Shown: positions 5,178-50,350, numbered from the stretch's first letter. The stretch: DNA of 64,000 bases from Squalus acanthias (GCA_030390025.1 CM059431.1:120964001-121028000), one strand, 5' to 3'. Made by a program: numbers and translations. Notes: generated by a model not told the origin, from the letters alone.

Positions 5178-6470
5178 TTGAGCGCTTCCTCAACTGAGGC
5201 ATATACCAGAAGCATGGAAGCCATTTATTTCCTTCCCTTCTGGGCATCAGATGAGGACGAACACCAGCCGCGGCACCAGCAGAACCATGAACAACAGCAG
5301 CACCAACAGCAGCAGCAACAACAGGAGCGCCAAGCTGCTGCTCACCCGCCTGAAGCTGCACAGGCCAGAAGGGGCCAGCGCATGGCAGGCCGTCGGCGCA
5401 GGAGATACCGCCCAAACAGGGTCTACAGACACAGGGTCAGCTACCTCAACATGTCTGAGCAGCAGTACCAAAGCCGGCTCCGACTTTCGCGAGAGGTTGT
5501 GGGTGACATCTGCGCAATGCTGCAACAAGACCTGGAGCCCAGAGGACCAGGTGGACACCCCTTACCAGTGGCCGGCAAAGTCACCACCGCACTCAACTTT
5601 TTTGCCTCAGGCTCATTCCAGGGATCAGCAGCAGACATCAGCGGCATCTCCCAGGCGGCCGCGCACACCTGCATCACGCAGGTAACCGATGCCCTCTTTG
5701 CCATCACGCACAATCACATCCATTTCACCAAGGATCAAGCAAGTGTCACGGCGCGTGCAGTTGGATTAGCTAATCTGGCAGGCTTTCCAAGGGTACAGGG
5801 CGTCGTTGACTGCACACATGTGGCCCTTAAGGTACCCCATCGCAATCCAGGTATTTTTGTCAACCGCAAGGGCTTCCACTCCCTCAACGTTCAGCTAGTG
5901 TGTGACCACAAGAAGGAAGTTTTGCATGTTTGTGCCAAGTACCCTGGCAGTTGCCATGACTCCTTTATACTGCGCCAGTCTAGTGTGCCTCCGCTATTCA
6001 GTCCACCAGACCAACTTAACGGATGGCTACTTGGAGACAAGGGCTGTCCCCTGAAGACATGGCTAATGATGCCGTTGAGGAGCCCATCCAACGCAGCTGA
6101 GGAGAGCTACAACTCCAGCCACATTTCCACCAGAGCCATAATCGATCAAACCATCGGTATGCTGAAGATGCGCTTCAGATGCCTGGATAGATCAGGTGGA
6201 GCCCTGCAATACTCAGCTGCCAGGGTCTCCAGAATCGTCGTGGTTTGCTGTGCACTTCACAAAATGGCACAGCGTCGTGGCTTGCAGATGTCGGAGCACA
6301 AAGTGGCTCCTCACATATCCTCCTCAGATAAGGAGGAGGAGGAGGTGGAGGAGGAGGAGGAGAGAGAGAACGAACATCTTGCAGAGGCCCATCAACCAGC
6401 GGCAGCATTACGCGAGACCATATCTGCCCGGAATGCAAGGAACACACTCATGTTGGCCAGATTTGCTTAG
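5178..6470 (+). CDS. Harbinger (HARBI1-like, DDE_Tnp_4) transposase; first ATG at 5214
   Basis: Motifs [40 protein letters not shown] and [17 protein letters not shown]-terminal poly-Q and C-terminal acidic tract. Confidence 0.9.
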
Positions 6471-11105: not shown

Positions 11106-12367
11106 AAAGTGACTTTTCAAGATACCCCAGGAGCATCTATGATGGTTTCATCTTGAAAAAATCCTCACTGCCATTTCTCTTTAATGGAGCAGGACAAATG
11201 GACAGATGAATGCTGGGGAATCAAGGATACTCCTTTGCTGCTCTGGCTAATAAGAACGGTCTGGACAGAAAATGCAATGAGGCTCATGCTCTCCATCCAA
11301 ATTCTGGTGAGCAAACTATTGAATGCTGAAGCAGCATTTCCAATGGCTGGACAGATCAAATGGGGACATACTCCGAGGCCAGAAGAAGCCAAGGTAATTA
11401 CTTGAACTGATAATTTTCTGCAGATTTCTTTTGGGCCAGGAGGGCCAAGAGTGCATCCCCACCCCCACAAGGAGTTCTTGGGCCTCCCCAACCCTGGTCT
11501 TGCCTCTCCCTGCAACACTAACTTCATGCCGGGTTTCCTTCCCTTGGGTCCCCGGCATCCCCGGACTCCCCTCCTAATTGCTGCTCCTGTCCGTCGGCCC
11601 TGACGTCACTCCCGCTGGTTTAGGGCAGGAGACAATGCTGCAGTATTTAAATGAGGCCTGGGAGCTAAAATTGTCCTGCCTCAAGTTGAAATCTCCGCGG
11701 GGGTTTCCCTGCTGGCCTGCAACCCGCCCACCCTGAGTTAAAATCAACCCTTTAGAGTTGCAATTCAGTTCACGATGCTCTGCGGGCTCCCAAAACCCTC
11801 TTGCATGTCTGCACAGATGTCAGAGCAGCCCTGCTGTATGTTTTTCAACATTCCATGCAGGGAGTTCTAAAGATTCTAAAAGGACGGCATTAAAAGCTTC
11901 TGCTGATTAATGAGTGCAGCTCAGTATGCAGACCTTGTAAGGTCCAATATCCATTGTTCCTGCAGCAGCTGCCCACCTAGCCCTATCTTTCCCTGCCTCC
12001 TGTTGATGCTCATCCACTTGCACTTGCTCCACCTCAGTAATGCTCGATGCTTCATCCTGAGATCCCTCCTGACTCCCACTATCTAATTCCCCCAAAGTAG
12101 TTGTCGCTGTTAAGTAGCTGACCTCAAAAATCTGTTTGATTCAGCCTTCCACTCAACACTTGGGTACACTTGGGAGCACCGGGAGTGTGGGCCTGATTCT
12201 AAATTGATTCTAAAATGTACTATCACAGTTTCACTCACAAGGCTGCTTCATGCTGCTTCACCAACAATTCCATGGGACTTCCACTGTATTGTATCATGTT
12301 TAGGGAAAGATAATGCAGTCTCAGAACAGCTCCGGGGGTGCTCCATGTGTCTGTACCTAAAGGAGCT

Positions 12368-15225
12368 GACAATCAGGAAGGACAGGCAGGAAGGAAGGGG
12401 AGGGGGGGTGGCTATGTTAATAAGGGAAGGAATCACTGTAATACAGATAAATGATACTGGGTCAAAAGATCAGGATAATGAAACAGTTTGGGTAGAGATT
12501 AGGAATAATAAGGGGAAAAAAACACTGGTGGGCATAGTATATAGGCTTCCTAATAGTTGCAACTCTGTTGGAAGAAGTATTAATCAGGAAATAGTTGGGG
12601 CATGTAATAAGGGAACAGCTATAATTATGGGGGATTTTAACTATCATATTAACTGGACAAATCAAATTGGGCAGGGCAGCCTTGAGGAAGAGTTTATTGA
12701 GTATCTTAGGGATGGATTTCTTGAGCAGTATGTAACTGATCCTACAAGGGGGCAAGCAACCTTGGACCTGGTACTGTGTAATGAGTCTGGATTAATTCAT
12801 AATGTCCTAGTTAAGGATCCCCTTGGAATGAGTGACCATAACATGGTTGAATTCCATATCCAATTAGAGGGTGAGAAGGTTGGTTCTCAAACAAGCATAC
12901 TGAGCTTGAATAAAGGAGACTATGATGGCATGAGAGCAGAATTGATTAAAGTGGACTGGGAAAATAGATTAAAGGGTAAGACGGTACATGAGCAGTGGTG
13001 TTCATTCAAGGAGTTATTTTACAACTTTCAAAATAAATATATTCCACTGAGGAAAAAAGGGTGTAAAAGAAATGACAGCCATCCATGGCTAATAAAGAAA
13101 TTAAAGAAAGTATCCAACTAAAAACAAGGACATATAAGGTAGCCAAAGTTAGTGGGAGGATAGAAGATTGGGAAGTCTTCAAAAGACAACAAAAAGTAAC
13201 TAAAGGATTGATTAAGAAAGGGAAAATAGACTATGAAAATAAATTAGCAAAAAATATAAAAACAGATAGCAAGAGTTTCTATAGTTATATAAAAAGAAAA
13301 AGGGTGGTTAAGGCAAACGTAGGTCCCTTGGAGGATGAGACCGGGAAATTAATGGTGGGAAACATGGAGATGGCAAAAATGCTGAACAAATATTTTGTTT
13401 CAGTCTTTATGGTAGAGGACACTAAGAATATCCCAACACTGGACAAACAGGGGGCTCTAGTGGGGGAGGAGCTAAATACGATTAAAATTACTAAGGAATT
13501 GGTACTCAGTAAAATAATGGGACTCAAGGCAGATAAATCCCCTGAACCTGATGGCTTACATCCTAGGGTCTTGAGGGAAGTGGCAGTAGGAATTGTGGAT
13601 GCTTTGGCAATAATTTTCCAAAACTCCCTGAACTCAGCAAAGGTCCCGGCAGATTGGAAAACTGCTAATGTAACACCCTTATTTAAAAAGGGTTGTAGGC
13701 AGAAGGCTGGGAAATATAGACCAGTTAGCCTAACATCTGTGGTGGGTAAAATTTTGGAGTCTATTATTAAGGAGACAGTAATGGAACATTTAGATAAACA
13801 TAATTTCATAGGACAAAGTCAGCATGGCTTTATGAAGGGGAAGTCATGTCTGACAAATTTGCTCGAGTTCTTTGCGGACATAACGTATAGGGTGGATAAA
13901 GAGGAACCAGTGGATGTAGTGTATTTAGACATCCAGAAGGCATTCGACAAGGTGCCACATAAAAGATTATTACTTAAGATAAAAAATCACTGGATTGGGG
14001 GTAATATTCTGGCATGGGTGGAGGATTGGTTATCTAACAGGAAGCAGAGAGTTGGGATAAATGGTTCATTCTCGGACTGGCAACCAGTAGCCAGTGGTGT
14101 TCCGCAGGGGTCGGTGCTGGGTCCCCAACTCTTTACAATCTATATTAATGATTTGGAGGAGGGGACCGAGTGTAACATATCAAAGTTTGCAGATGATACA
14201 AAGATGGGAGGGAAAGTAGAGAGTGAGGAGGACGTAAAAAACCTACAAGGGGATATAGACAGGCTGGGTGAGTGGGCAGAGATTTGGCAGATGCAATACA
14301 ATATTGGAAAATGTGAGGTTATGCACTTTGGCAGGAAAAATCAGAGAGCAAGTTATTATCTTAATGGCGAGAAACTGGAAAGTACTGCAGTACAAAGGGA
14401 TCTGGGGGTCTTGGTGCAAGAAAATCAAAAAGTTAGTATGCAGGTGCAGCAGGTGATCAAGAAAGCCAATGGAATGTTGGCTTTTATTGCTAGGGGGATA
14501 GAATATAAAAACAGGGAGGTATTGCTGCAGTTGTATAGGGTATTGGTGAGACCGCACCTGGAGTACTGCATACAGTTTTGGTGTCCATACTTAAGAAAAG
14601 ACATACTTGCTCTCGAGGCAGTACAAAGAAGGTACACTCGGTTAATTCCGGGGATGAGGGAGTGGACATACGAGGAGAGGTTGAGTAGATTGGGACTCTA
14701 CTCATTGGAGTTCAGAAGAATGAGAGGCGATCTTATTGAAACATATAAGATTGTGAAGGGGCTTGATCGGGTGGACGCGGTGAGGATGTTCCCAATGATG
14801 GGTGAAACTAGAACTAGGGGACATAATCTTAGAATAAGGGGCTCCTCTTTGAAAACTGAGATGAGGAGAAACTTTTTCACTCAGAGGGTAGTAGGTCTGT
14901 GGAATTTGCTACCCCAGGAAGCTGTGGAAGCTACTTCATTAAATAAATTTAAAACAGAAATAGACCGTTTCCTAGAAGTAAAGGGAATCAGGGGTTACAG
15001 GGAGCGGGCTGGAAATTGGACATGAGTTTGAGTTCGGATCGGTCAAGGCCCTGTGGGTGGCGGAGCGGGCCCAGGGACCGAGTGGCCTGGTCCTTCTCCT
15101 GCTTCTTGTGTTCTTTAGAGTTGAGGTTGGATCAGATCAGCCATGATCTCATTGAATGGCGGAGCAGGCTCGAGGGGCCGATTGGTCTACTCCTGCTCAT
15201 ATTTCTTATGTTCTTATGTTCTTAT
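12368..15225 (+). mobile_element. CR1 LINE with near-complete ORF2 (APE endonuclease plus RT); one frameshift at about 13091
   Basis: APE motifs GGGVA, MGDFN and SDH in 12204-13121. RT in 13085-15025 (646 aa) with GVPQGS and FADD. (TTCTTATG)n tail. Confidence 0.92.
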
Positions 15226-17489: not shown

Positions 17490-18651
17490 GTGGGGGCTGC
17501 ACTGATTGGGGGCGTCGTCCTGCACCACCAGAATCGGAGGACACAGAGACGCAGAGAGAGAGTGGCAATCATGGCCAGATTGAGGAGGGCCAACAGGCCT
17601 CTGTACAGGAGACCTTACCCTCCCAGGGTATATCGCCAACAATTCACATATATTAACATGTCTGAGGAGCAGTGTTTCCGAAGGCTGCGCTTCAGCAAGG
17701 AGGTGGTCACTGAGCTCTGCCACCTGCTGCAGCCAGATCTGCAGCCTCAACTGAGGTCCAGGATGTCTCTGTCGGTGGCAGTGAAGATCACAGTGGCTCT
17801 GAACTTTTATGCCACTGGCTCATTTCAAGCTGCTACTGGGGGACATCGCCAATATCTCCCAGTTCGCGGTGCATTGCTGCATCCGTCAGGTCACAAATGC
17901 CCTCTTTAAAAGGAGACGAGAGTACATCTCTTTCCCCATGACCCCAGAAAAGCAGCAAGAACGCGCAATGGGCTTTGCTAGGATAGCGGGCTTCCCCATG
18001 GTGCAGGGCGCCATTGACTGCACGCATGTGGCTTTGCGTGCTCCGCATGAGAATGCCGAGGATTTCCGCAACAGAAAGGGGTTCCCTTCCTTGAACGTTC
18101 AGTTGGTCTGTGACCACAGACAGCTGATACTCGCTGTCAATGCCCACTATCCTGGCAGCTGCCACGATGCATTCATCCTGCGCCAGACTACTGTGGCAGA
18201 ACTTTTCCAGGCACCGCATCAACCAGTTGGTTGGCTTCTTGGGGACAAGGGATATCCACTGAGCACCTGGCTGATGACACCGCTCCGTACGCCCAACACC
18301 CCTGCTGAGCTGCGGTACAACGAGAGCCATCAAGCTACCAGGAACATCGTTGAGCACACAATCGGCGTGCTCAAGCAACGGTTCCGCTGTCTCGACCATT
18401 CTGGAGGAGCCCTGCAGTACTCGCCTGAGCGAGTTTCCCACTTCGTAGTTGTGTGCTGCATGCTGCATAACCTGGCAATCCTCAGGACCCAGCCAATGCC
18501 ACCAGGCCTTGGAGCACCACCAGAGGAGGAGGAGGAAGAGGAGGAGGAAGAGGAGGAGGATGATCATCAGCAGCACCAAGGCGGGAGGGAGGCCTACAAT
18601 GTAGAAACTGGAAGGGCCGTCCGTCAACGGCTGATAGCAAGCCGCTTCTAG
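17490..18651 (+). pseudogene. Harbinger transposase with a single +1 frameshift in the G5 run at 17838-17842; start uncertain
   Basis: ORFs 17421-17909 and 17809-18651 join at ATG.DI. Intact GAIDCTHV, CHDAFIL, LLGDKGY and IVEHTIG (DDE triad). Confidence 0.85.
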
Positions 18652-39270: not shown

Positions 39271-40865
39271 TGTAAGGGATTCTCTCCTGACCCTGCGTGT
39301 CTCGTAGCCTGTGAGATTCACGCGGCTCTGTGCAGCCTGTATGTCAGTGCGGGTCTAGGCCTGGTCTCCAGCCAGTCTGGGAACACTAGACACCCCTGTG
39401 AGTGGTTCGAATCACTCTCCCTTACGGTTCTAGACACTGGACTTAGATGCGAGAGCAGTAATGGAGATAAAACTCATGTAGACTTGGTTTGAACGGTACG
39501 AAATGGAAAATCTTTATTGCATGATACTTAAAATTATGAAATACATGTCATATGCACAGATTAATGACAGTACAATCTTACAAACAGTTATAATCACTCT
39601 TAGGGAAACGAGGAACGAACGGCACAACGTAAATAGGGCACACATTACAAATATCCTTAATCTTTAACCCTCCCCTATCAATAGCTATCCTAAACTAGCT
39701 GCGTAGGATCCCGAGACTCATGCTCACCACTCGTAATAACTCGGAGAAATCCCGAATAGCTGATCGGATGTTTTTCACCGCAGCACCCACGTGTTGGTCA
39801 GGAGATCTCCTGGTCCCACTTGTTTACTGCTTTTGCTGCTCGGTCAGTCGGCTGGACCGTCCGCTGTAGTGAAGACCTCTGTTGGTTGGATACAAGGTAT
39901 GGTGGAGCACCGTTGTCAATATCGCTGATACGATGTGTTTGCACAGTCCAGTTATCATCGATGCAATATGTCTTGTTAAAGAAGAAAACTTCCTGTCGAG
40001 AAGACTTGGCTGATCGACCTACAGGCGCGGTCGGGATCTACTGACCGTGGCGATGGATAAGGTCTTCTTCTCTTCTCCTCTCATCTCATCTCATCTCATC
40101 TCATCCCGGGCCTTCGGTTCCGCTGCCAGCTACCAACATAGGTCTTTGCAACAGTCTTTTACACAGGAGCAGCCACGATGATAACAGCAACAAGCGGCAA
40201 GAGTCAAGAACACGAGGCAAGAGCAAGAGCAAGAGGCCAGAGAGCGAATGGACGGTTTGGGGCCTGCAATTATAGTGCACAGTTCTTCCGTTTCCCGCCC
40301 AACTACAATGTCCATTCTTTTGTTTACGGTTTGGCGCCCAAAATGTCCTGTATGGGTGATCTCCGTCCTTAATGGGTTTCGGGGCTACTCATGAATGTTT
40401 GAGTACCTGCTAATATTTCTCCCATTGTTAAATCGGTCGGTGTTCCCCCTGGAGGGGTTTGGGGCTTCCAAGTGTCCTGTATAACTACCTGCTAACGGCT
40501 CTCTCATCGTAGAGCCGTTGGGAGTTTACATATTAATGTCCTTTGGATGGGCCCTTGATGGCTTTCCTTTGTACCTGGGAGACCGATCCCAGTATCGATG
40601 TTTATACTGTAAACCCATAATGTCCTGTGTATTGTCTTCACTGTGCTGAATCGTTATCGATCCTGCAAAAATGTTTATTGGAACGCCATCTTGTCTGCCT
40701 GCTGAAAAGTCTAGAATGTTCTGTCACGAGGTGCGGCGGCCATTTTACAGGCTGCTTGTGTCCAATTTAAACCTGACAGCATTCCGCTGAAATAAAAGCT
40801 GTTTTGAACGAAACTTTGTGTTTTCTCCTCATTAAAATGAAATCGCGATAATTGCGAATTCTACA
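39271..40865 (-). repeat. 3' LTR
   Basis: TGTAAGGG...TTCTACA on the plus strand. It matches 46925-48519 with no difference noticed by eye, and the ORF track reports identical ORFs at a constant offset. Confidence 0.95.
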
Positions 40866-41289: not shown

Positions 41290-43641
41290 TTACACTGCGC
41301 TCTCATCGTGCACGCGCACGTAACGTTCTCGCCACTCTCCCGTGTTCTCATGCTTGGTGAGGCGCTTGTCTCTTTTACAATGTATGAACAAAAGGTATAC
41401 TACAATAAACACTTGACAGACGACTAAAATGTGGGAGGCTATTCTGACCCATGAGGGCACTTCAATATTCGTGAACAGATTCCACCACGGTGGAACCACT
41501 ATGTCCAAAATGTCTGTACCTATCTCGACGGTTTTCTGTTCTAATGTATAGAAATGCTTTTGTGACACCGCGACGGCTTTCAGAAGTTTGGTTAAATGCT
41601 CAGGGAGAGGGGGAATGAGGTACCCAAAATGCGCGACAAATCGCTGCAAGTCGGTGAAATTCTCTTTTACTGTGAGATGAACAGTGGATGGTTCAGGGAT
41701 TGGGATAATTCGCTGTTGTGCTACTTGAACTTCAGCCCTGGGTTTAAAACAGAAACTGCTGTCACTCACCGGACACCGGCTACGGTTTCCATGCTGGTAG
41801 TGTTGCGCTGCAGTGGTAACACAATATGTTCCACCCCCGATGTATGCTACCTGCGGAGGCACATGATCTTGTGCCATTGCCTCCATGGTGCAATTCATGG
41901 ACTTGGCGCCAGCCGTTCTGAACCCGCACTGTGGTGTTAAAAAGGCATTCAAGTGCTGGGGGCACAGTATTATGTGTGCTCCCCTGCCACGACAACCAGA
42001 GAGATCTGTACCTGTCATCGTTTGCTCCCAGCGGATGACGTAAGGTGGAACTGCTGCATAACGAATGTGGGCTCCCCCCTGAATGACACCAATGTTCTCT
42101 ACCCGATACACCGGGGCGGGCTTTGCTGTGTTGCCCAAAACCGGCATGCGTAATACTATTCCCATAATAGTATGGTTTGAACGTCCGCAGTCCACGGGGA
42201 CTGGGTAAGCTTCTGAAGCTAGCCTGAGCTGGCACGGACTTAATGCGTTCTGAAAAGGGTGGAGCGCCCGCAGGTGTTTGTTACTTATCCAGGACGGGAC
42301 CAAACCTTGTTTTAAATCCTCCAAATTACTGCGGCCCTCGCCCAGTAACCACGCCCCGTAAAGCACGCACACCTCGTTCTGCGCAGCTTGATCGGATGCA
42401 TTCCGATCTTCCCTGATCAGGGCATTTACCGTACGCGCATGTTTCTCCAGCTCTGCTATAATTTCCTTTAAGTGTAGTGTCATGGCTTGGTCCTCGTGCA
42501 GACCTGACCCTACCACTTTATTCTCGTCTGTAAGAATATCCTTTAACTGTGTTTTTAAACCATTAATCTGGGTCTGCAGCTCCACACTGTCTAGAGCGTT
42601 GACCACAGATGTCCCTGTATTAAAGGCAGTGAACGCATCGTTCACCAAACCCCTTCTTTGCCTCCCTACTTGGTCCAAAACTTCCTGCGGTGCGGTGTAT
42701 AAACTTGTCTTATCAATTTCTGCAAAATCAAACTCGTAAAATTGCCTGAACATCTTGGTCAACAGGACCTGGTACAACTGTTCCGTCTTTTTGGGGCACC
42801 ACTCTGGTAACCGTACCTCAGTGAGATTTAAAATCACCGAGGCCACCGCGTAATGTACCCCCTGAAATAGTATCTGGTCTGTGGGGACCAGTACCAAACC
42901 GTTCCCGGGTCCCTTACTAGTTTTAGGGCACCCTTCTTCCTCAGTTAGAACTACCGGGATCGTGGGCGGGGCTTTGCGTGGGCGCGTAATGAGCTCAGTG
43001 GCATTTACTGGGATCGGAGAGTATGGGGCTCCGCACCCCCTGGTGCTCGCATCCCACCTCATCCCCTGTCCGTTATCCTGCCACTGATTAATAAAGAATA
43101 TGGAGATGCCTTTGGGGCAAACGTACTTTGACCCCCACATACAAACATAAATTCCCTCATCCGGTTCCCACCATTTGTCCCAACAGACTTTCACTTGTCC
43201 GTCTGTCCCCGTAATTGTCCGATGGGTATTATTACCCAGTCGCTCCCACTCAACCGAAGAGTTCCTCATAGTTTTGCTCAGCTTTCGCAGCCACCACCAT
43301 CGGCTCAATGGGACATTCCCACTGCAGGTCAAACAAATCCGTTTGCCGACGGTGACGCTGATCCTGGGTGCGATGATCCGTACTTTGGGGCACATTAAAG
43401 AAGTCTCTTTATAGGCGAACCCCGATGTGCTGGAATACTCCGTTGAGTTCGTTCCCAGCCATCCTGGCCACCTTCCCTTGTGGAAATAGGTGCTGGTCCC
43501 TTCTGCCTTCCGTCTCCCGGTCCCATCCACCGCGATGGGGGCCGTGTCCCCGGAACATCCAAACACCACGACATCCTTGGTGAGGCCCCGATAGGCCAAT
43601 CCACATCCGATTGCCACGAGCAAAACTAGAAGTCGTTCCAT
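41290..43641 (-). CDS. env: Envelope / class I fusion glycoprotein (783 aa), F-protein-like, with an N-terminal Ig-like domain
   Basis: Signal peptide MERLLVLLVAIGCGLA; Ig-like LTC...W...DEGIYVC; furin site RQRR (aa 327-330) followed by a fusion-peptide-like segment and heptads; Cys-rich region; W-rich juxtamembrane segment; TM ILVVCQVFIVVYLLFI; short tail; several NxS/T sequons. Confidence 0.88.
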   Translation of the reverse strand: MERLLVLLVAIGCGLAYRGLTKDVVVFGCSGDTAPIAVDGTGRRKAEGTSTYFHKGRWPGWLGTNSTEYSSTSGFAYKETSLMCPKVRIIAPRISVTVGKRICLTCSGNVPLSRWWWLRKLSKTMRNSSVEWERLGNNTHRTITGTDGQVKVCWDKWWEPDEGIYVCMWGSKYVCPKGISIFFINQWQDNGQGMRWDASTRGCGAPYSPIPVNATELITRPRKAPPTIPVVLTEEEGCPKTSKGPGNGLVLVPTDQILFQGVHYAVASVILNLTEVRLPEWCPKKTEQLYQVLLTKMFRQFYEFDFAEIDKTSLYTAPQEVLDQVGRQRRGLVNDAFTAFNTGTSVVNALDSVELQTQINGLKTQLKDILTDENKVVGSGLHEDQAMTLHLKEIIAELEKHARTVNALIREDRNASDQAAQNEVCVLYGAWLLGEGRSNLEDLKQGLVPSWISNKHLRALHPFQNALSPCQLRLASEAYPVPVDCGRSNHTIMGIVLRMPVLGNTAKPAPVYRVENIGVIQGGAHIRYAAVPPYVIRWEQTMTGTDLSGCRGRGAHIILCPQHLNAFLTPQCGFRTAGAKSMNCTMEAMAQDHVPPQVAYIGGGTYCVTTAAQHYQHGNRSRCPVSDSSFCFKPRAEVQVAQQRIIPIPEPSTVHLTVKENFTDLQRFVAHFGYLIPPLPEHLTKLLKAVAVSQKHFYTLEQKTVEIGTDILDIVVPPWWNLFTNIEVPSWVRIASHILVVCQVFIVVYLLFIHCKRDKRLTKHENTGEWRERYVRVHDESAV

Positions 43642-43925: not shown

Positions 43926-44828
43926 TTAAATCCTGAGAAGGCTGCTGCGAGCTCTTCCCGACGGTGGGAGGGCACTGACCCTTCCCTCTGATCTGCCGCA
44001 GCCTGTTGCTGCGCTGACCCTTTCCTCTGATCTGCCGCAGCCTGTTACTGCTTCGATGTGGCCTGTCTCTACCCGGGTTATCTTAACCTGAAACTTACGC
44101 CCTGGGGCAGTCTGTGGACCTGACCACATCCTCCTGGGCTGGGGTACTCTGCTTGACCTACGGGGAGTTGCTATGGGCGGGGGCTCCGTGACGGACGGAC
44201 CGGGTTCCGAGACCTCCAACGGGATGACCTGGGGTTCCATCACAGTCGCCAGCTCCGCCTCCGCTGACTCCGCCTCCCTAACCTCGGGGCTGGCAGTTCG
44301 TGGCCCCGCCCTGCTCGGCCCAGCAGGCGGCCCTTCACTCGTGAACTCTGCCTCCCCTGAGGACTGGACGTTCAAAGCGGGCGGCCACACCTCTGGGAAC
44401 CACATTGGTACTCCCTGTGCTCCTATGGCGGCTGGCCCTGCCTCCTCTAGCTCCTCCCTCCTGTTGTCGGGACCTGCAGCTTGTGTGTCCACCCCGTGTG
44501 GATCTCTACCTATCGGCCCCAATCCTCCCAGACCGTTCCTCCGGAACCACCCGTCATCATCACTATGCTCATCTGCACTATCCTCATCTGACCAGGGTAC
44601 CCTGGGGTCCTCGTCATCTAACCCCCAACTCCAGAAAAACGCTGCATGATCGTCCGGGATGTCCCTTCCCCTGATGCAAGCTGCTACGCCTGCCTGTGTG
44701 CCTTGTGGTCCTACCTGGGGCTGTGTCTTCCCCACTCGCAGGTCTGGCCCCTCCCTTAAGACAGGCCACCGCCCCTGCTTGTTTCTGTGAAATCTCACCT
44801 GCTGGAGGCTGCAGATTTCTATCCTGTT
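43926..44828 (-). CDS. Acidic/proline-rich ORF of unknown function between gag and env; no ATG at its 5' end
   Basis: Stop-free frame 44828-43926 containing WSWGLDDEDPRVPWSDEDSADEHSDDDGW, RRSSR and a 13-aa duplicated unit TGCGRSE.RVSA. Confidence 0.45.
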   Translation of the reverse strand, partial: NRIEICSLQQVRFHRNKQGRWPVLREGPDLRVGKTQPQVGPQGTQAGVAACIRGRDIPDDHAAFFWSWGLDDEDPRVPWSDEDSADEHSDDDGWFRRNGLGGLGPIGRDPHGVDTQAAGPDNRREELEEAGPAAIGAQGVPMWFPEVWPPALNVQSSGEAEFTSEGPPAGPSRAGPRTASPEVREAESAEAELATVMEPQVIPLEVSEPGPSVTEPPPIATPRRSSRVPQPRRMWSGPQTAPGRKFQVKITRVETGHIEAVTGCGRSEERVSAATGCGRSEGRVSALPPSGRARSSLLRI

Positions 44829-45108
44829 TTAAATCCTCATACTCCCTGCTCCTGGCTACCCTGTAGGCTGTTTTTATCTCTCTAAGCTGCCCTTCTAGCC
44901 TGAGCACGTCTAACTTTCCCATTGCTCGGGCATTCTCCTCCCGCAGGGCCTGCTCTCTAAGCTGCCCTTCCAGCCCATCTATTTTCTCTATTAAGCGGGC
45001 GTTCTCCTCCCGCAAGGCCTGCTCTTTTAACCTGGCCTCCTCACCGCAGACCCCCTCCTGTGCGTGTCTTTTAAAAGGACACAGGTAGGCAGGCTGCGTG
45101 GGCTCTAG
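44614..45108 (-). CDS. In-frame post-gag extension (164 aa, coiled-coil), putative readthrough product
   Basis: Codon walking shows the frame of ORF 44614-45015 stays open back to the gag TGA (45109-45111). The context is CAA TGA CTA G. EQALREENAR...LEGQLR occurs twice. Confidence 0.6.
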   Translation of the reverse strand, partial: LEPTQPAYLCPFKRHAQEGVCGEEARLKEQALREENARLIEKIDGLEGQLREQALREENARAMGKLDVLRLEGQLREIKTAYRVARSREYEDLKQDRNLQPPAGEISQKQAGAVACLKGGARPASGEDTAPGRTTRHTGRRSSLHQGKGHPGRSCSVFLELGVR

Positions 45109-46920
45109 TCATTGGGTACTATTAGACGGTCCTGCGGCACCTACGGGGCCGGTTGCGACCGCCACCTGTCCACGCGCATTCAAAACCATCTTGCGCATGA
45201 CTCCTAACACTGCTTCGAGGTCTTCGGGAGAGGTGGGTGCCTTTGCTTCCTTAGCCGGGACAGGCGCCTGGGTTCGGACCGCGGGATTTTTATCCTTGGA
45301 ATCCTTCCAAGGGTTCCTGCAGTGCTTGCGCCAGTGCCCTGTCTTCCCACACCCGTAACAGGCATTACTTGCCTGTGGGGCGCGATTACCCTCCTGATGC
45401 CACTCTCTTTGAGTCGGGGCTGCGGGTCGTACCTCATGTACTCTTCCCTTAAAGGGACGTGTCGTCATACCCCTTATGTTACGGTAACCCAACGTAAGTC
45501 GATTCAAGACCGACTCTTCCGTAAGGTTGAGGTCATTGGGATCGAACCAGGCTTTTGCCTGCTCTCTAACGGCTGGTAAACTGTTGGCTATTATGCACCT
45601 AAGCCAATGAATTAAAGCGGCGCCTTCCACATCTTCGCGTTCGGGCGCACCTAGACAGCTGCGCTCATATACTGGCCACAGCCTGTCGGCAAAAACCTTC
45701 GGGGGTTCTCCCTCCATCTGCACTGTCTGTCCCACTCTAGCAAACGGACCTCCGTCGTTCGCTCCCACTACTTCTAGGACCTCATTTTTCAATTCCTCAT
45801 AACTTTTATTACCCCTCTTGCTATCGCCTGAGAGACACTGAAGGACCGAGCTATCTAACGAGAACAGCAGCATTTTTGCTGTCTCCCCATCATCGCAGCC
45901 GTTGATGGCTGCGGCTTGCTCAACTTCCCTAAAATGTACGGAAGGGTCGTCTATCTCGGTCAGCTTCCTTACGTGGTTTATCATGGCCCTCAGCTGATGT
46001 GAACTGTGAGGCAACACCAGCTGTCCGAGGAGATCCCCCGGTTCTTCCCCACCGTTTCTGCTTGGGCCCCTTTTAATACCCGTTACTGGATACAACGATC
46101 CCTTTTCTACCTCCTTTTCAACGGGCTCTTTTGCTTCTTCCGTTGCTTCCTCCCTAACCCAGGTTTCTGAATAGCTGGGTGGCGCGGAGGGCGCAGTGGC
46201 TACTACTTCTTCTGCTTTACTTGGTGGGGAATTTCTAAATCTCTCATTTACTAGCGGCTGGCGTGCCGACGGATTAATAAGGCACACCATGCCGTTCGCA
46301 TTATTCACGGCCTTTTTGAGGCTCTCTATCTCTTTTTCGCAGGCGCTATGGTCGGCTCCCTGAAACTTATCCTCAAGGGCCAACTTATACGCCGACCTAA
46401 CCCCCATTAAGCTCTCTTCTTGAGTTCTTATCTGGGCAGCTTGACGGTTACATCTTTCCTTCATCCTACTCTCGTTTAATTTTGCTTCAGTGATCTGGCA
46501 CTCGAGATACTCTACCCTTGTTTTAAGGTAACTGGAGACTTCCTGGCTTTCCTGGCGTAACTCATGTAAACTCTTAATGAGCGCCTCCCCTCCAGAAACC
46601 TTCTCCTCCATTTCCTCCTCTAACTGCTTGATTCGAGCGGTTAGCGCTGTATTGGTCTGGTTTGAAATCTGAACCTGCCTTTTGTAGCACATAAGCCAGA
46701 CTGCTTTCTCAACTGCCTTTTTATGCTCCTTACTATCAGTCCACCTTTCAGCTGCCTCTAGTGGGCTCTTATCCGCTAACAATTCGCTTATCCACTTTTT
46801 CGTTAGATTAACCTTTCCAAATACGTAATCCGCTATCTTTTCCTGCATCACATTTCGTACAGTCATTCCAAAATCTAACACACTACCCTCTCGCTGCCAG
46901 TGTCCTGCCGCGGTCGCCAT
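45109..46920 (-). CDS. gag: Gag polyprotein (603 aa)
   Basis: N-terminal coiled coil, PSAPPSY late-domain motif, capsid-like helical region and CX2CX4HX4C knuckle CYGCGKTGHWRKHC; located directly after the 5' LTR/PBS. Confidence 0.88.
   Translation of the reverse strand: MATAAGHWQREGSVLDFGMTVRNVMQEKIADYVFGKVNLTKKWISELLADKSPLEAAERWTDSKEHKKAVEKAVWLMCYKRQVQISNQTNTALTARIKQLEEEMEEKVSGGEALIKSLHELRQESQEVSSYLKTRVEYLECQITEAKLNESRMKERCNRQAAQIRTQEESLMGVRSAYKLALEDKFQGADHSACEKEIESLKKAVNNANGMVCLINPSARQPLVNERFRNSPPSKAEEVVATAPSAPPSYSETWVREEATEEAKEPVEKEVEKGSLYPVTGIKRGPSRNGGEEPGDLLGQLVLPHSSHQLRAMINHVRKLTEIDDPSVHFREVEQAAAINGCDDGETAKMLLFSLDSSVLQCLSGDSKRGNKSYEELKNEVLEVVGANDGGPFARVGQTVQMEGEPPKVFADRLWPVYERSCLGAPEREDVEGAALIHWLRCIIANSLPAVREQAKAWFDPNDLNLTEESVLNRLTLGYRNIRGMTTRPFKGRVHEVRPAAPTQREWHQEGNRAPQASNACYGCGKTGHWRKHCRNPWKDSKDKNPAVRTQAPVPAKEAKAPTSPEDLEAVLGVMRKMVLNARGQVAVATGPVGAAGPSNSTQ
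46902..46919 (-). other. Primer binding site, tRNA-Arg(TCG)-type
   Basis: The minus strand reads TGGCGACCGCGGCAGGAC, complementary to ...GTCCTGCCGCGGTCGCCA, which I recall as the vertebrate tRNA-Arg-TCG 3' end. It lies 5 nt from the LTR. Confidence 0.85.
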
Positions 46921-46924
46921 TTTC

Positions 46925-48519
46925 TGTAAGGGATTCTCTCCTGACCCTGCGTGTCTCGTAGCCTGTGAGATTCACGCGGCTCTGTGCAGCCTGTATGTCA
47001 GTGCGGGTCTAGGCCTGGTCTCCAGCCAGTCTGGGAACACTAGACACCCCTGTGAGTGGTTCGAATCACTCTCCCTTACGGTTCTAGACACTGGACTTAG
47101 ATGCGAGAGCAGTAATGGAGATAAAACTCATGTAGACTTGGTTTGAACGGTACGAAATGGAAAATCTTTATTGCATGATACTTAAAATTATGAAATACAT
47201 GTCATATGCACAGATTAATGACAGTACAATCTTACAAACAGTTATAATCACTCTTAGGGAAACGAGGAACGAACGGCACAACGTAAATAGGGCACACATT
47301 ACAAATATCCTTAATCTTTAACCCTCCCCTATCAATAGCTATCCTAAACTAGCTGCGTAGGATCCCGAGACTCATGCTCACCACTCGTAATAACTCGGAG
47401 AAATCCCGAATAGCTGATCGGATGTTTTTCACCGCAGCACCCACGTGTTGGTCAGGAGATCTCCTGGTCCCACTTGTTTACTGCTTTTGCTGCTCGGTCA
47501 GTCGGCTGGACCGTCCGCTGTAGTGAAGACCTCTGTTGGTTGGATACAAGGTATGGTGGAGCACCGTTGTCAATATCGCTGATACGATGTGTTTGCACAG
47601 TCCAGTTATCATCGATGCAATATGTCTTGTTAAAGAAGAAAACTTCCTGTCGAGAAGACTTGGCTGATCGACCTACAGGCGCGGTCGGGATCTACTGACC
47701 GTGGCGATGGATAAGGTCTTCTTCTCTTCTCCTCTCATCTCATCTCATCTCATCTCATCCCGGGCCTTCGGTTCCGCTGCCAGCTACCAACATAGGTCTT
47801 TGCAACAGTCTTTTACACAGGAGCAGCCACGATGATAACAGCAACAAGCGGCAAGAGTCAAGAACACGAGGCAAGAGCAAGAGCAAGAGGCCAGAGAGCG
47901 AATGGACGGTTTGGGGCCTGCAATTATAGTGCACAGTTCTTCCGTTTCCCGCCCAACTACAATGTCCATTCTTTTGTTTACGGTTTGGCGCCCAAAATGT
48001 CCTGTATGGGTGATCTCCGTCCTTAATGGGTTTCGGGGCTACTCATGAATGTTTGAGTACCTGCTAATATTTCTCCCATTGTTAAATCGGTCGGTGTTCC
48101 CCCTGGAGGGGTTTGGGGCTTCCAAGTGTCCTGTATAACTACCTGCTAACGGCTCTCTCATCGTAGAGCCGTTGGGAGTTTACATATTAATGTCCTTTGG
48201 ATGGGCCCTTGATGGCTTTCCTTTGTACCTGGGAGACCGATCCCAGTATCGATGTTTATACTGTAAACCCATAATGTCCTGTGTATTGTCTTCACTGTGC
48301 TGAATCGTTATCGATCCTGCAAAAATGTTTATTGGAACGCCATCTTGTCTGCCTGCTGAAAAGTCTAGAATGTTCTGTCACGAGGTGCGGCGGCCATTTT
48401 ACAGGCTGCTTGTGTCCAATTTAAACCTGACAGCATTCCGCTGAAATAAAAGCTGTTTTGAACGAAACTTTGTGTTTTCTCCTCATTAAAATGAAATCGC
48501 GATAATTGCGAATTCTACA
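46925..48519 (-). repeat. 5' LTR (TATA-like 47923-47928, splice donor 47381, AATAAA 47167-47172)
   Basis: Direct repeat of 39271-40865, followed by the PBS on the minus strand. Confidence 0.95.
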
Positions 48520-50350
48520 GGAGCCAATCAGAGAAGGGAATCTCCCTTCATACATTTGACAGGAAAACCTGTCAAATATATGAATGGAAATCACCCCCAA
48601 AACATAATAAAACTTTAAATACATTTTTTTAAAAATCACATTTTTAAAATGACTTTAAATTACATAAATTAAGTATTTTAAACAAAAGTTTTATTTTTGG
48701 AAAAAAATAATTTAAGTTTTTAACGGGGCTAAAAATAAACTTACCTTTCTTTAAAGTATTTTTATATGATAAATCAGTGGAAACATTGTTTTTTTACTTT
48801 TTTCAACTCTTATCCTGGTAAAAGCAAGCCTTACACCTGCTTTTACCAGGCGCAAGAATTGTAAATGTTTTCTGCGGGCGGAGGGTCTCCAAAAAACAGA
48901 ACTCTCCCCCCGCAGAGGCCCTGCTCCAGGGCAGCCGAAGGATCTGTCAAGAGCTTTCTTGACAGATTGGAAATGCCGGTTTCCAGCGCATGCGCAGTGC
49001 ATGCCTAAAACCGGCATTTCCGTTGGCCCTACGGGTGAGTACACAGCGCGTACACACCCGTAGGGAACGGAATTTCTGCCTCAGTATTATGTAGGGATGG
49101 CTCTTGAATCGCTTTAGACATGGGCAGGGATTTAACTCAGAGGCGGGGAAGGAGCAGGGCAGCTGAATTACGGTCAGGAAACCCGGGAGAATGAGTTTCC
49201 CTCAGGCTCTGCCGAATTTAACGGCAGGGCCTTGGAACACTTTCTTTTCTCTGTTGGCACCAGGCCACAGCCGGGGAGCAGAGAGGAGGGAGGGAGGGTT
49301 CGGAGGCCGGAGGGGAGTCGGGGGCCGGGGATCAGAGATCAGAGGCCGAGGGTGGAGGCTGGAGATCGGAGGCCGAGGGTGGAGGCTGGTGATCGGAGGC
49401 CGGATGGGGGTCGGGGGCCGGGGATCGGAGATCGGAGGCCTCGGGGGTGATGTCAGAGGCTGGGGCTGGGGGGGGGGGGAGGAGATCGGAGGCCTCATGG
49501 GGGAGATTGGAAGGGTCGCGGGGTGGTGGTGTCTGAGCGCGGTGGGGTGGGCGAGTCAGGTACGCTAGATGCAGCAGGTAAGTGGAAAGGGACTTACCTC
49601 CCGTATCCAACAGTCCTCGTCTTCCTTTCGTTGCCGGGCTCCCCAAGGCCAGGGAAACCCGGCCACCCAGACTTAAATCTAAAATGGTGTTTCGAAAAGA
49701 GGCACGCAGCCTCATTATAATATTTAAATGGTCAACCCGCCTCCTGGGAACGGGTTGGCCCCCCGGCCCCCCATCTCGCCTTCGTTCAAGCCAAAAGTTG
49801 GAAGCGTGTTGGGATCGGGATTCAGATTTCTAACACTGTAACTTCCCACCTGACCCCCACGCACCCATACATAGTACAAACCTTAGGCATGAAACCATTT
49901 CACTATCGCTCTCTTACTCGGGAGAAACGAAGAGCCCGGCTGCAAAGTTTGGAATTATCTGTGCAGAATGTGCAAGCAGAGCAGGTGTTTATTTTTCCTC
50001 ACTGAAACTGGGCTGTCATGGACCATTGGGGAGTGACTCGATGTGTGTGGTTTAGTTATTTTAACCCATTTCACACTAAATTGCTCATAATTTCAACATA
50101 AATTGGCAATATCACTCATGGCTGGGTTGGGAAATCGAAACATTTACAGATTAGAGGGAGCTGCTGACGCTGACCATGAGTGCTAAAAAATGGAAAGGAG
50201 TTCCCTTCTCCCATCCTGATATCCCTGACCTTGAAAAGCACAAAACAAAACAGATACAAAGGCCGCAATTATAACGATTTCCACGCTCCCCACCCCCACT
50301 GGTGGCAGAGGGTTGGACACGGGGGGATTGGAGTTGGGGTTAAAACATCA

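Follow-up and report, generated by a model that had tools for sequence, protein, structure and literature searches.

A probable V-type immunoglobulin domain at the N-terminus of a putatively F/lokiretrovirus-like envelope protein from a young endogenous retrovirus of Squalus acanthias

Architecture of the Env protein and of its N-terminal segment

The window analysed here, a stretch of 64,000 nucleotides of the Squalus acanthias genome (GCA_030390025.1 CM059431.1:120964001-121028000), contains a retroviral element whose env gene encodes an envelope protein (Env) of 783 aa. This work concerns the N-terminal segment of that protein, in which aa 85-186 very probably form a V-type immunoglobulin (Ig) domain with a canonical C106-C167 disulfide. 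An exhaustive search revealed 49 relatives of the env open reading frame (ORF) at E ≤ 0.001. The parts of the protein, all encoded on the minus strand, are the following:

41290..43641, minus strand: env ORF, 783 aa plus stop codon (ORF reading)
43594..43641, minus strand: probable signal peptide, aa 1-16, with a hydrophobic run L4-A16 (proposed by inspection of the sequence, without a predictor)
43390..43593, minus strand: N-terminal sub-region, aa 17-84, with the conserved RWPGWLG-NST-YSS, kept only in the skate/shark subgroup
43084..43389, minus strand: Ig V-like domain, aa 85-186, with C106, W116/117, D161xGxYxC167 and N-glycosylation sites N127 and N137
42931..43083, minus strand: post-Ig stretch and Pro-rich linker, aa 187-237, present only in the subgroup of the window Env
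42652..42930, minus strand: F2-like part, aa 238-330, from the family-wide CPxxxxGPxxGL motif to the furin-like RQRR
42652-42663, minus strand: furin-like RQRR, aa 327-330 (sequence reading)
41293..42651, minus strand: F1-like fusion subunit, aa 331-783, with a fusion-peptide-like start at G331, heptad regions and a Cys-rich beta region
41374-41448, minus strand: transmembrane segment (TM), about aa 732-756, followed by a 27-aa tail (hydropathy)

The location of RQRR at aa 327-330 defines the F2-like part as aa 238-330, and the strongly hydrophobic 19-mers of Env are confined to aa 730-757.

Positions 43132-43389 of the window (minus strand), in which an earlier note on this DNA had recognised a V/I-type Ig signature, correspond exactly to Env aa 85-170, and C106, W116/117 and D-E-G-I-Y-V-C167 were all found there together with the strings quoted. 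C106 and C167 are 61 residues apart, within the 55-75 residues of an Ig Cys pair; W116/W117 lie 10-15 residues past the first Cys, at the place of the strand C Trp; and D161-E-G-I-Y-V-C167 conforms to the D-x-G-x-Y-x-C of strands E-F. When the segment was aligned with those of other Envs, the C106/C167 columns matched the Cys pair of three of four distant modules, and the W116/W117 column was Trp in all seven other segments. In the eight-segment alignment over all Env lineages, the Cys/Trp/Cys columns of the window, shark and frog N-termini coincide. The Cys and Trp residues of the window segment comprise C84, C103, C106, W115-117, W132, C153, W154, W157, W158, C167, W169 and C175. The Pro-rich linker described in the same note after the Ig region is also present, with Pro at seven of the 34 residues (21%) of aa 205-238.

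Comparison of the segment with PDB sequences gave a best E value of 0.069, nearly all of the 77 weak matches being Ig V domains, and the alignments to kappa V domains (variable light, VL) and JAM-A span the whole domain. A profile of the window's subgroup (four skate and shark sequences at 53-72% identity) matched the IgV domain of CRTAM over its whole length when compared with solved structures (E 0.0071), and six of its eight matches belonged to the Ig superfamily (IgSF). The profile of all types, made from the eight aligned Env segments, resulted in similarity to JAML at E 8.3e-8 and in 1190 matches at E ≤ 10, almost all of them IgSF among the 60 listed. Both profiles are therefore similar to solved Ig domains. 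With hhalign, the all-types profile was aligned over 80 columns to eight host V-set exons, taken from among the best matches to Pfam V-set and not as a survey, with a probability of 72.5% and an E value of 3.3e-5. Taken on its own, the window sequence gives weak, marginal evidence for an Ig fold, and the profiles appear to give better support.

Two AlphaFold2 (AF2) models were obtained for Env aa 17-240. In the model built with a nine-row alignment, strands were predicted at aa 93-96, 101-107, 115-121, 141-146, 149-155, 161-170 and 180-189, with predicted local distance difference test (pLDDT) values of 53-71 over these blocks, and they sit at the positions expected for Ig strands A', B, C, D, E, F and G. 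An unbiased fold search with this model returned V domains almost exclusively, whereas the model made without an alignment returned mixed sandwiches. Residues 17-84 had pLDDT values below 50 in both models.

The remainder of the protein is likely to be a fusion core of the F/lokiretrovirus type. The F-like core of the earlier note finds support in F-protein proportions and F-like language-model features. The order and sizes of an F0 precursor (F2, furin site, fusion peptide, heptad repeat A (HRA), beta domains, heptad repeat B (HRB) and TM) were recovered by sequence reading and a heptad/hydropathy script, and the Cys pattern of the core, conserved in the family, fits an F-like layout. The ESM features of aa 238-740 scored 0.91 to the Baculo_F and Fusion_gly (PF00523) clusters, sharing 193-206 of 256 features, which we regard as a lead only. 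One Env profile also matched foamy virus gp130 weakly in PDB (E 0.017).

It has to be said that a number of results weigh against this architecture. Pfam Ig_3 matched the whole Env at E 0.43 (11.6 bits) and the segment alone at E 0.012 (16.5 bits), with a cut-off of 30 bits; the gathering threshold of the Pfam Ig families was not reached, and the six of eight aligned segments that matched Ig_3 were all below it. The subgroup profile aligned by hhalign with probabilities of 0.9% to the eight host V-set exons and 1.3% to the other Env Ig types. Both AF2 models are of low confidence, with a mean pLDDT of 36 without an alignment, and of 43 with a predicted template modelling score (pTM) of 0.44 with the nine-row alignment; Foldseek found nothing for either of them at E ≤ 0.001. 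The outcome of the Pfam and AlphaFold checks proposed in the earlier note was consequently mixed, the strands falling at Ig positions while the Ig_3 score stayed below its cut-off and the models stayed uncertain. As for the core, 40 of 40 family members scanned had no match to Pfam Fusion_gly (PF00523; E ≤ 10), Baculo_F or foamy Env, and the gp130 match was lost with a cleaner alignment.

These results could be taken to mean that the segment is some other beta-rich or Cys-knotted domain that resembles an Ig by convergence or chance. All tests restricted to the window's subgroup come out marginal, as this explanation would have it, and the subgroup carries extra Cys residues (C84, C103, C153 and C175) and five extra Trp, unusual in Ig domains; the low confidence of the models points the same way. 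We nevertheless consider it quite unlikely, since the motif spacing is canonical, the VL and CRTAM alignments run through the full domain without large gaps, the predicted strands coincide with Ig strands A' to G, and the fold search with the alignment-based model, although unbiased, found hardly anything but V domains.

Relatives of Env and the history of the module

Thirty of the 49 relatives were looked up, and the named ones belong to sharks, a skate, coelacanth and frogs but to no teleost. In all full-length members the core begins at the conserved CPxxxxGPxxGL motif (aa 238 in the window Env). Envs of sharks (Chiloscyllium, Scyliorhinus) and frogs (Pelodytes, Mantella, Lithobates, Rana-like) carry an Ig-type segment upstream of the core, joined to it by a short linker only; full-length relatives from these animals matched the Ig profile at 1e-12 to 1e-24, and one Ig-bearing relative has been named automatically in UniRef as 'Ig-like domain-containing protein'. 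Sequences of the same Ig type as the window Env, with 47-72% identity to it, came from Rhinoraja, Pristiophorus, Rhincodon and others. In the core tree, a Mustelus/Pristiophorus clade with a Cys-rich, non-Ig N-terminus is the sister group (100/100) of the clade that includes the window Env, and Ig-type modules occupy the same position in every other deep clade except one. Two frog Envs that this tree places in separate clades with long branches align colinearly through both Ig and core, and a third frog type has an alignable core and a module that does not align.

These comparisons indicate that the predicted Ig-type module is old and conserved in position, that it exists in at least four sequence types, and that it has been replaced at least once. 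The question raised in the earlier note, whether related Envs carry or swap the module, was answered on both counts: it is carried in at least four types, and a Cys-rich N-terminus takes its place in one clade. These data are compatible with a single ancient acquisition of an Ig domain as well as with several.

The same note had spoken of a captured domain, and a capture from a host gene within the window element's own lineage would imply a recent event. A precedent for capture exists in the SIRP domain of alpha-like Envs. In pairwise comparisons the window Ig matched the Chiloscyllium Ig over 22 residues only (E 0.009) and the frog Env Ig segments not at all, and therefore independent captures remain conceivable. 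We give a recent capture very little credit, because the same Ig type is spread over Rhinoraja, Pristiophorus, Rhincodon and others at the identities given above, and because the deep-branching shark and frog Envs bear Ig-type modules in the same place, which speaks against the idea of a recent event. The nearest host IgSF protein, which the earlier note had proposed to look for, was not found either: no donor appeared at E ≤ 0.01 with the Ig profile, and the search over longer proteins gave Env relatives only. The host genome is not searchable with the Ig segment itself, its thousands of copies of the endogenous retrovirus (ERV) filling the result list. No relatives were found in IMG/VR, and a profile of 11 full-length Envs reached only close shark and skate sequences.

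The host genome also harbours another Env lineage, which is older (L072:179-1000, plus strand, and 66 places) and has stop codons in many copies. The core of this lineage shares 43-47% identity with the Mustelus Env, and the N-terminal part is rich in Cys and has no Ig motif. In addition, four public shark gene models (P0002, P0003, P0010 and P0038) join Env fragments to Niban-like, ZFP2-like zinc-finger, cadherin and F-box genes; these fusions are probably annotation chimeras.

The element, its copies and selection on env

Between positions 39271 and 48519 (minus strand) the window contains one copy, with pol deleted, of a very young long terminal repeat (LTR) retrovirus of a cartilaginous fish that is present in high copy number. 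Besides env, its features are:

46925..48519, minus strand: 5' LTR, 1595 bp, TG...CA, delimited by the ends of the direct repeat, with target-site duplication CTCC at 48520-48523
45109..46920, minus strand: gag-like ORF, 603 aa, with an N-terminal coiled coil and one CCHC knuckle
43926..44798, minus strand: pol remnant, a 290-aa ORF equal to the C-terminal low-complexity tail (comparison with full-length copies)
39271..40865, minus strand: 3' LTR, identical to the 5' LTR, with target-site duplication CTCC at 39267-39270 and a polypurine tract just upstream

A sequence resembling a primer-binding site (PBS), TGG..., starts 5 nt past the 5' LTR. The first gag ATG (46920) falls within this PBS-like TGGCGACC... 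(window 46907-46924, minus strand), so that the true gag start may be a later Met. The region between the LTRs comprises the gag-like ORF, the 290-aa ORF and env; pol is missing. Copies elsewhere in the genome are about 3.7 kb longer, and in one full-length copy (L031:6039-9899) the pol frame is open over at least 1287 aa and encodes protease, reverse transcriptase (RT), two RNase H domains (one of them a Ty3-type 'tether') and integrase (H2C2, rve and SH3). Past the integrase SH3, this full-length pol ends in a long, acidic, Pro-rich tail of low complexity with no family match, and this is the tail retained in the pol-deleted window copy. In place of pol the window has a 344-nt filler (44733-45076, minus strand) that is unmatched in a full-length copy. 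The junction of gag, filler and pol tail recurs in 12 of 30 loci (L001-L030), which indicates that the pol-deleted gag-env form has itself been copied, presumably as a derivative amplified with proteins supplied in trans. Among solved structures, pol was about equidistant from Ty3 (E 2.8e-71), murine leukaemia virus (MLV) RT (4e-70) and foamy protease-RT (1e-63), and its integrase was nearest to that of prototype foamy virus (2.9e-33).

When Env aa 17-240 and aa 500-740 were searched against the 3.7-Gb genome, each gave at least 150 scored matches, all of them 100% identical in protein and most of the env copies lying in an 815-codon open frame; the numbers of first-look candidates were 6073 and 9301, respectively. 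The ERV family looks extremely young and very large. In 30 loci chosen on aa 500-740, the region aa 1-499 showed 84 distinct synonymous vs 22 distinct non-synonymous changes, and the Ig stretch aa 85-175 showed 15 vs 4, the protein changes being N109D, R126K and D147N. Summed Nei-Gojobori values over aa 1-499 were pS 0.061 and pN 0.0020 (pN/pS 0.034); the Ig domain had a pN/pS of 0.026 and the core one of 0.017. These estimates are not independent, since the compared pairs have ancestry in common and loci with an intact protein had been selected. Despite this non-independence, the excess of silent change in the env copies is very large. Among the env differences in public runs of other coded organisms, 12 of the 14 best-supported were synonymous. 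The fact that env copies differ almost only at synonymous sites indicates that the Env protein, the Ig domain included, is under selection for function. This purifying selection is a better fit to spread by reinfection than to intracellular copying, two modes for which PMC10435555 gives context.

In 14 public runs (X1-X14, from seven studies and with six coded organism labels), 52-73% of the env 31-mers were present, some env pieces showing 0-3 differences per 200-1000 nt. Env that is almost identical is thus present under more than one of these labels. No splice joint in env was seen in the contig sets of these 14 runs, whose kind is unknown or guessed and none of which is listed as RNA. Rfam and tRNA scans of the window gave nothing. 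Other mobile elements in the window are a long interspersed nuclear element (LINE) with endonuclease and RT ORFs (12345-15025, plus strand) and two ORFs of PIF/Harbinger-type DDE transposases (5214-6470 and 17809-18651, plus strand).

Proposed function and comparison with known envelope proteins

Our overall reading, to which we assign a probability of roughly 0.6, is that of an F/lokiretrovirus-like Env with an N-terminal V-type Ig domain as its own attachment module. The protein would be a class I fusion Env of the kind represented by paramyxovirus F and the lokiretroviruses, with an F2-like piece, a furin site, a fusion peptide and a long F1-like subunit, preceded by about 220 extra residues whose centre (aa 85-186) would be the V-type Ig domain and which the Pro-rich linker would connect to the first strand of the fusion core. 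The Ig module would serve as the receptor-binding domain (RBD) of the Env, would be retained on the particle through the F2-like piece after furin cleavage, and its engagement would trigger F-like refolding, so that it would act in cis as HN/H/G does in trans for paramyxoviruses. A receptor-binding or immune-modulating role, as put forward in the earlier note, is plausible, and receptor binding is the function that we infer to be best supported.

A real Ig fold could also have a job other than binding of an entry receptor, either as an immune-modulating or adhesion mimic of a host V-type receptor or as a cap over the prefusion trimer, shielding or stabilising it. Among solved Ig domains, the closest are adhesion or immune V domains (JAML, JAM-A, CRTAM, pIgR and CD8), and according to PMC11468914 the N-terminus of F-type folds is found at the same end of the molecule as domain II, so that a module attached there is not necessarily apical. 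Selection is strong, and protein change in the module shows no sign of being faster than in the core. The purifying selection implies that the Ig domain matters without indicating its role, which tells against a firm assignment to attachment. On the other side, the type of module varies and is even replaced across Env lineages while the core stays alignable, as is usual for RBDs, and the window Env has no other candidate RBD because its F2-like part has just 93 aa. We therefore hold a different job to be unlikely, and attachment remains our preferred function. A more specific proposal goes further along the same line: the F-type core and V-type Ig RBD would make up an undescribed Env class of a retrovirus recently or still infectious in skates, whose module derives from a JAML/JAM/CRTAM-like host receptor and which enters by mimicry, binding the natural cell-surface ligand of that receptor. 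This is speculative, and its truth would surprise us.

F-type fusion proteins are usually seen as needing either a separate attachment protein, as in paramyxoviruses, or an inserted RBD, as in foamy viruses. If the attachment reading holds, the F-type fusogen class has also solved attachment by modular domain addition, Ig-type RBD modules have arisen on two unrelated classes of retroviral Env, and the module has been swapped between lineages. The Env family is intact and extremely young, its copies number at least in the hundreds, and purifying selection on it is strong. It therefore offers a practical way to identify the receptor that a basal-vertebrate retrovirus uses, and it is also suited to asking how Envs of the lokiretrovirus type enter cells.

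The earlier note knew of no such architecture in a retroelement Env, which needs correction. According to bioRxiv 10.1101/2024.03.17.585361, a modified IgV-fold RBD is the standard N-terminal domain of Envs of the MLV and feline leukaemia virus (FeLV) type, that is, the gamma type, and alpha-like ERV Envs bear a canonical, SIRP-derived IgV domain. Both are likewise N-terminal, self-folding and exchangeable between Env lineages, and the SIRP-like domain has the canonical B-F disulfide. The differences are that these modules sit on gamma/alpha-type cores made of surface and transmembrane subunits (SU-TM), whereas that of the window Env sits on a probable F/loki-type core, and that the SIRP-like domain has a clear host donor, unlike the module described here. 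Since Ig-type RBDs are known on gamma- and alpha-type Envs, the window Env is a variant and not a new kind: it is likely to combine a known kind of module with a different, F-type core, a combination that was not found reported. Immunoglobulin is unmentioned in two lokiretrovirus papers and in an eLife paper on the F-type Envs of invertebrate retroelements, and no paper pairing 'lokiretrovirus' with 'immunoglobulin' was found in the literature searched; work on cartilaginous-fish foamy-like ERVs (J Virol 2023), which lay outside this search, may describe these elements.

With paramyxovirus and pneumovirus F the window Env shares its predicted proportions: an F2-like part of about 93 aa, a furin site, a fusion peptide, an F1-like part of about 450 aa with a Cys-rich beta region, and a heptad region before the TM. 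Paramyxovirus F depends on a separate attachment protein, in contrast to the N-terminal module appended here. In foamy Env the RBD is inserted within domain III (PMC11468914), whereas the extra module of the window Env is N-terminal, and the 93 aa from core start to furin site leave no room for such an insertion. Nor does the window Env belong with foamy Env (gp130) by similarity, as it had no Pfam foamy Env match and its sole weak PDB match was not reproduced. The same paper describes domain II of F and foamy Env as an Ig-superfamily fold. We considered whether the Ig signature might be this domain and rejected the idea, because domain II is C-terminal, and so a distinct element from the N-terminal module, and because lokiretrovirus Envs also have the core without an Ig segment.

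In lokiretrovirus Env, too, a long TM-side subunit and a TM are combined with a signal peptide, an R-x-K/R-R site and a fusion peptide (Wang and Han, Mol Biol Evol 2021; PMC7947760). By eye, the sequences given in that paper share the core start GPxSG[IL] and the later Y[KR]..N[IV]G..AHI..PP and C..CP..CG[LF]; the six of its 24 consensus N-termini that were compared (Bsp, Aro, Oja, Xla, Xtr and Rca) pass from the signal peptide directly into the ...PGPxxGI... core and are without the Ig-bearing extension of 150-220 aa, unlike the window Env. Lokiretrovirus Env matches PF00523 (E 2.2e-7, PMC7947760), in contrast to none of 40 members of the window Env family. The pol genes of lokiretroviruses and of the full-length copies have a Pfam set in common (RT, tether-type RNase H, RNase H, Integrase_H2C2 and rve), and the dual RNase H was evident in the full-length copy as RT_RNaseH_2 (E 1.6e-21) and RNase_H (E 1.6e-19). 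No gamma-type Env domain appeared in the Pfam scan, so that the Env is also unlike the gamma type, as in lokiretroviruses. The hosts overlap in frogs and coelacanth, and lokiretroviruses were present in none of three orectolobiform sharks (PMC7947760). This likeness to lokiretroviruses is one of motifs and domain set, not of phylogeny with lokiretrovirus sequences.

In the coronavirus spike, receptor-binding domains are placed N-terminal to the fusion core. The spike thus resembles the proposed organisation of the window Env in having N-terminal RBDs and an F-related fusion core in one polypeptide, and differs from it in that its N-terminal domains are not of the Ig V type. The homology of spike to F is remarked upon in PMC11468914.

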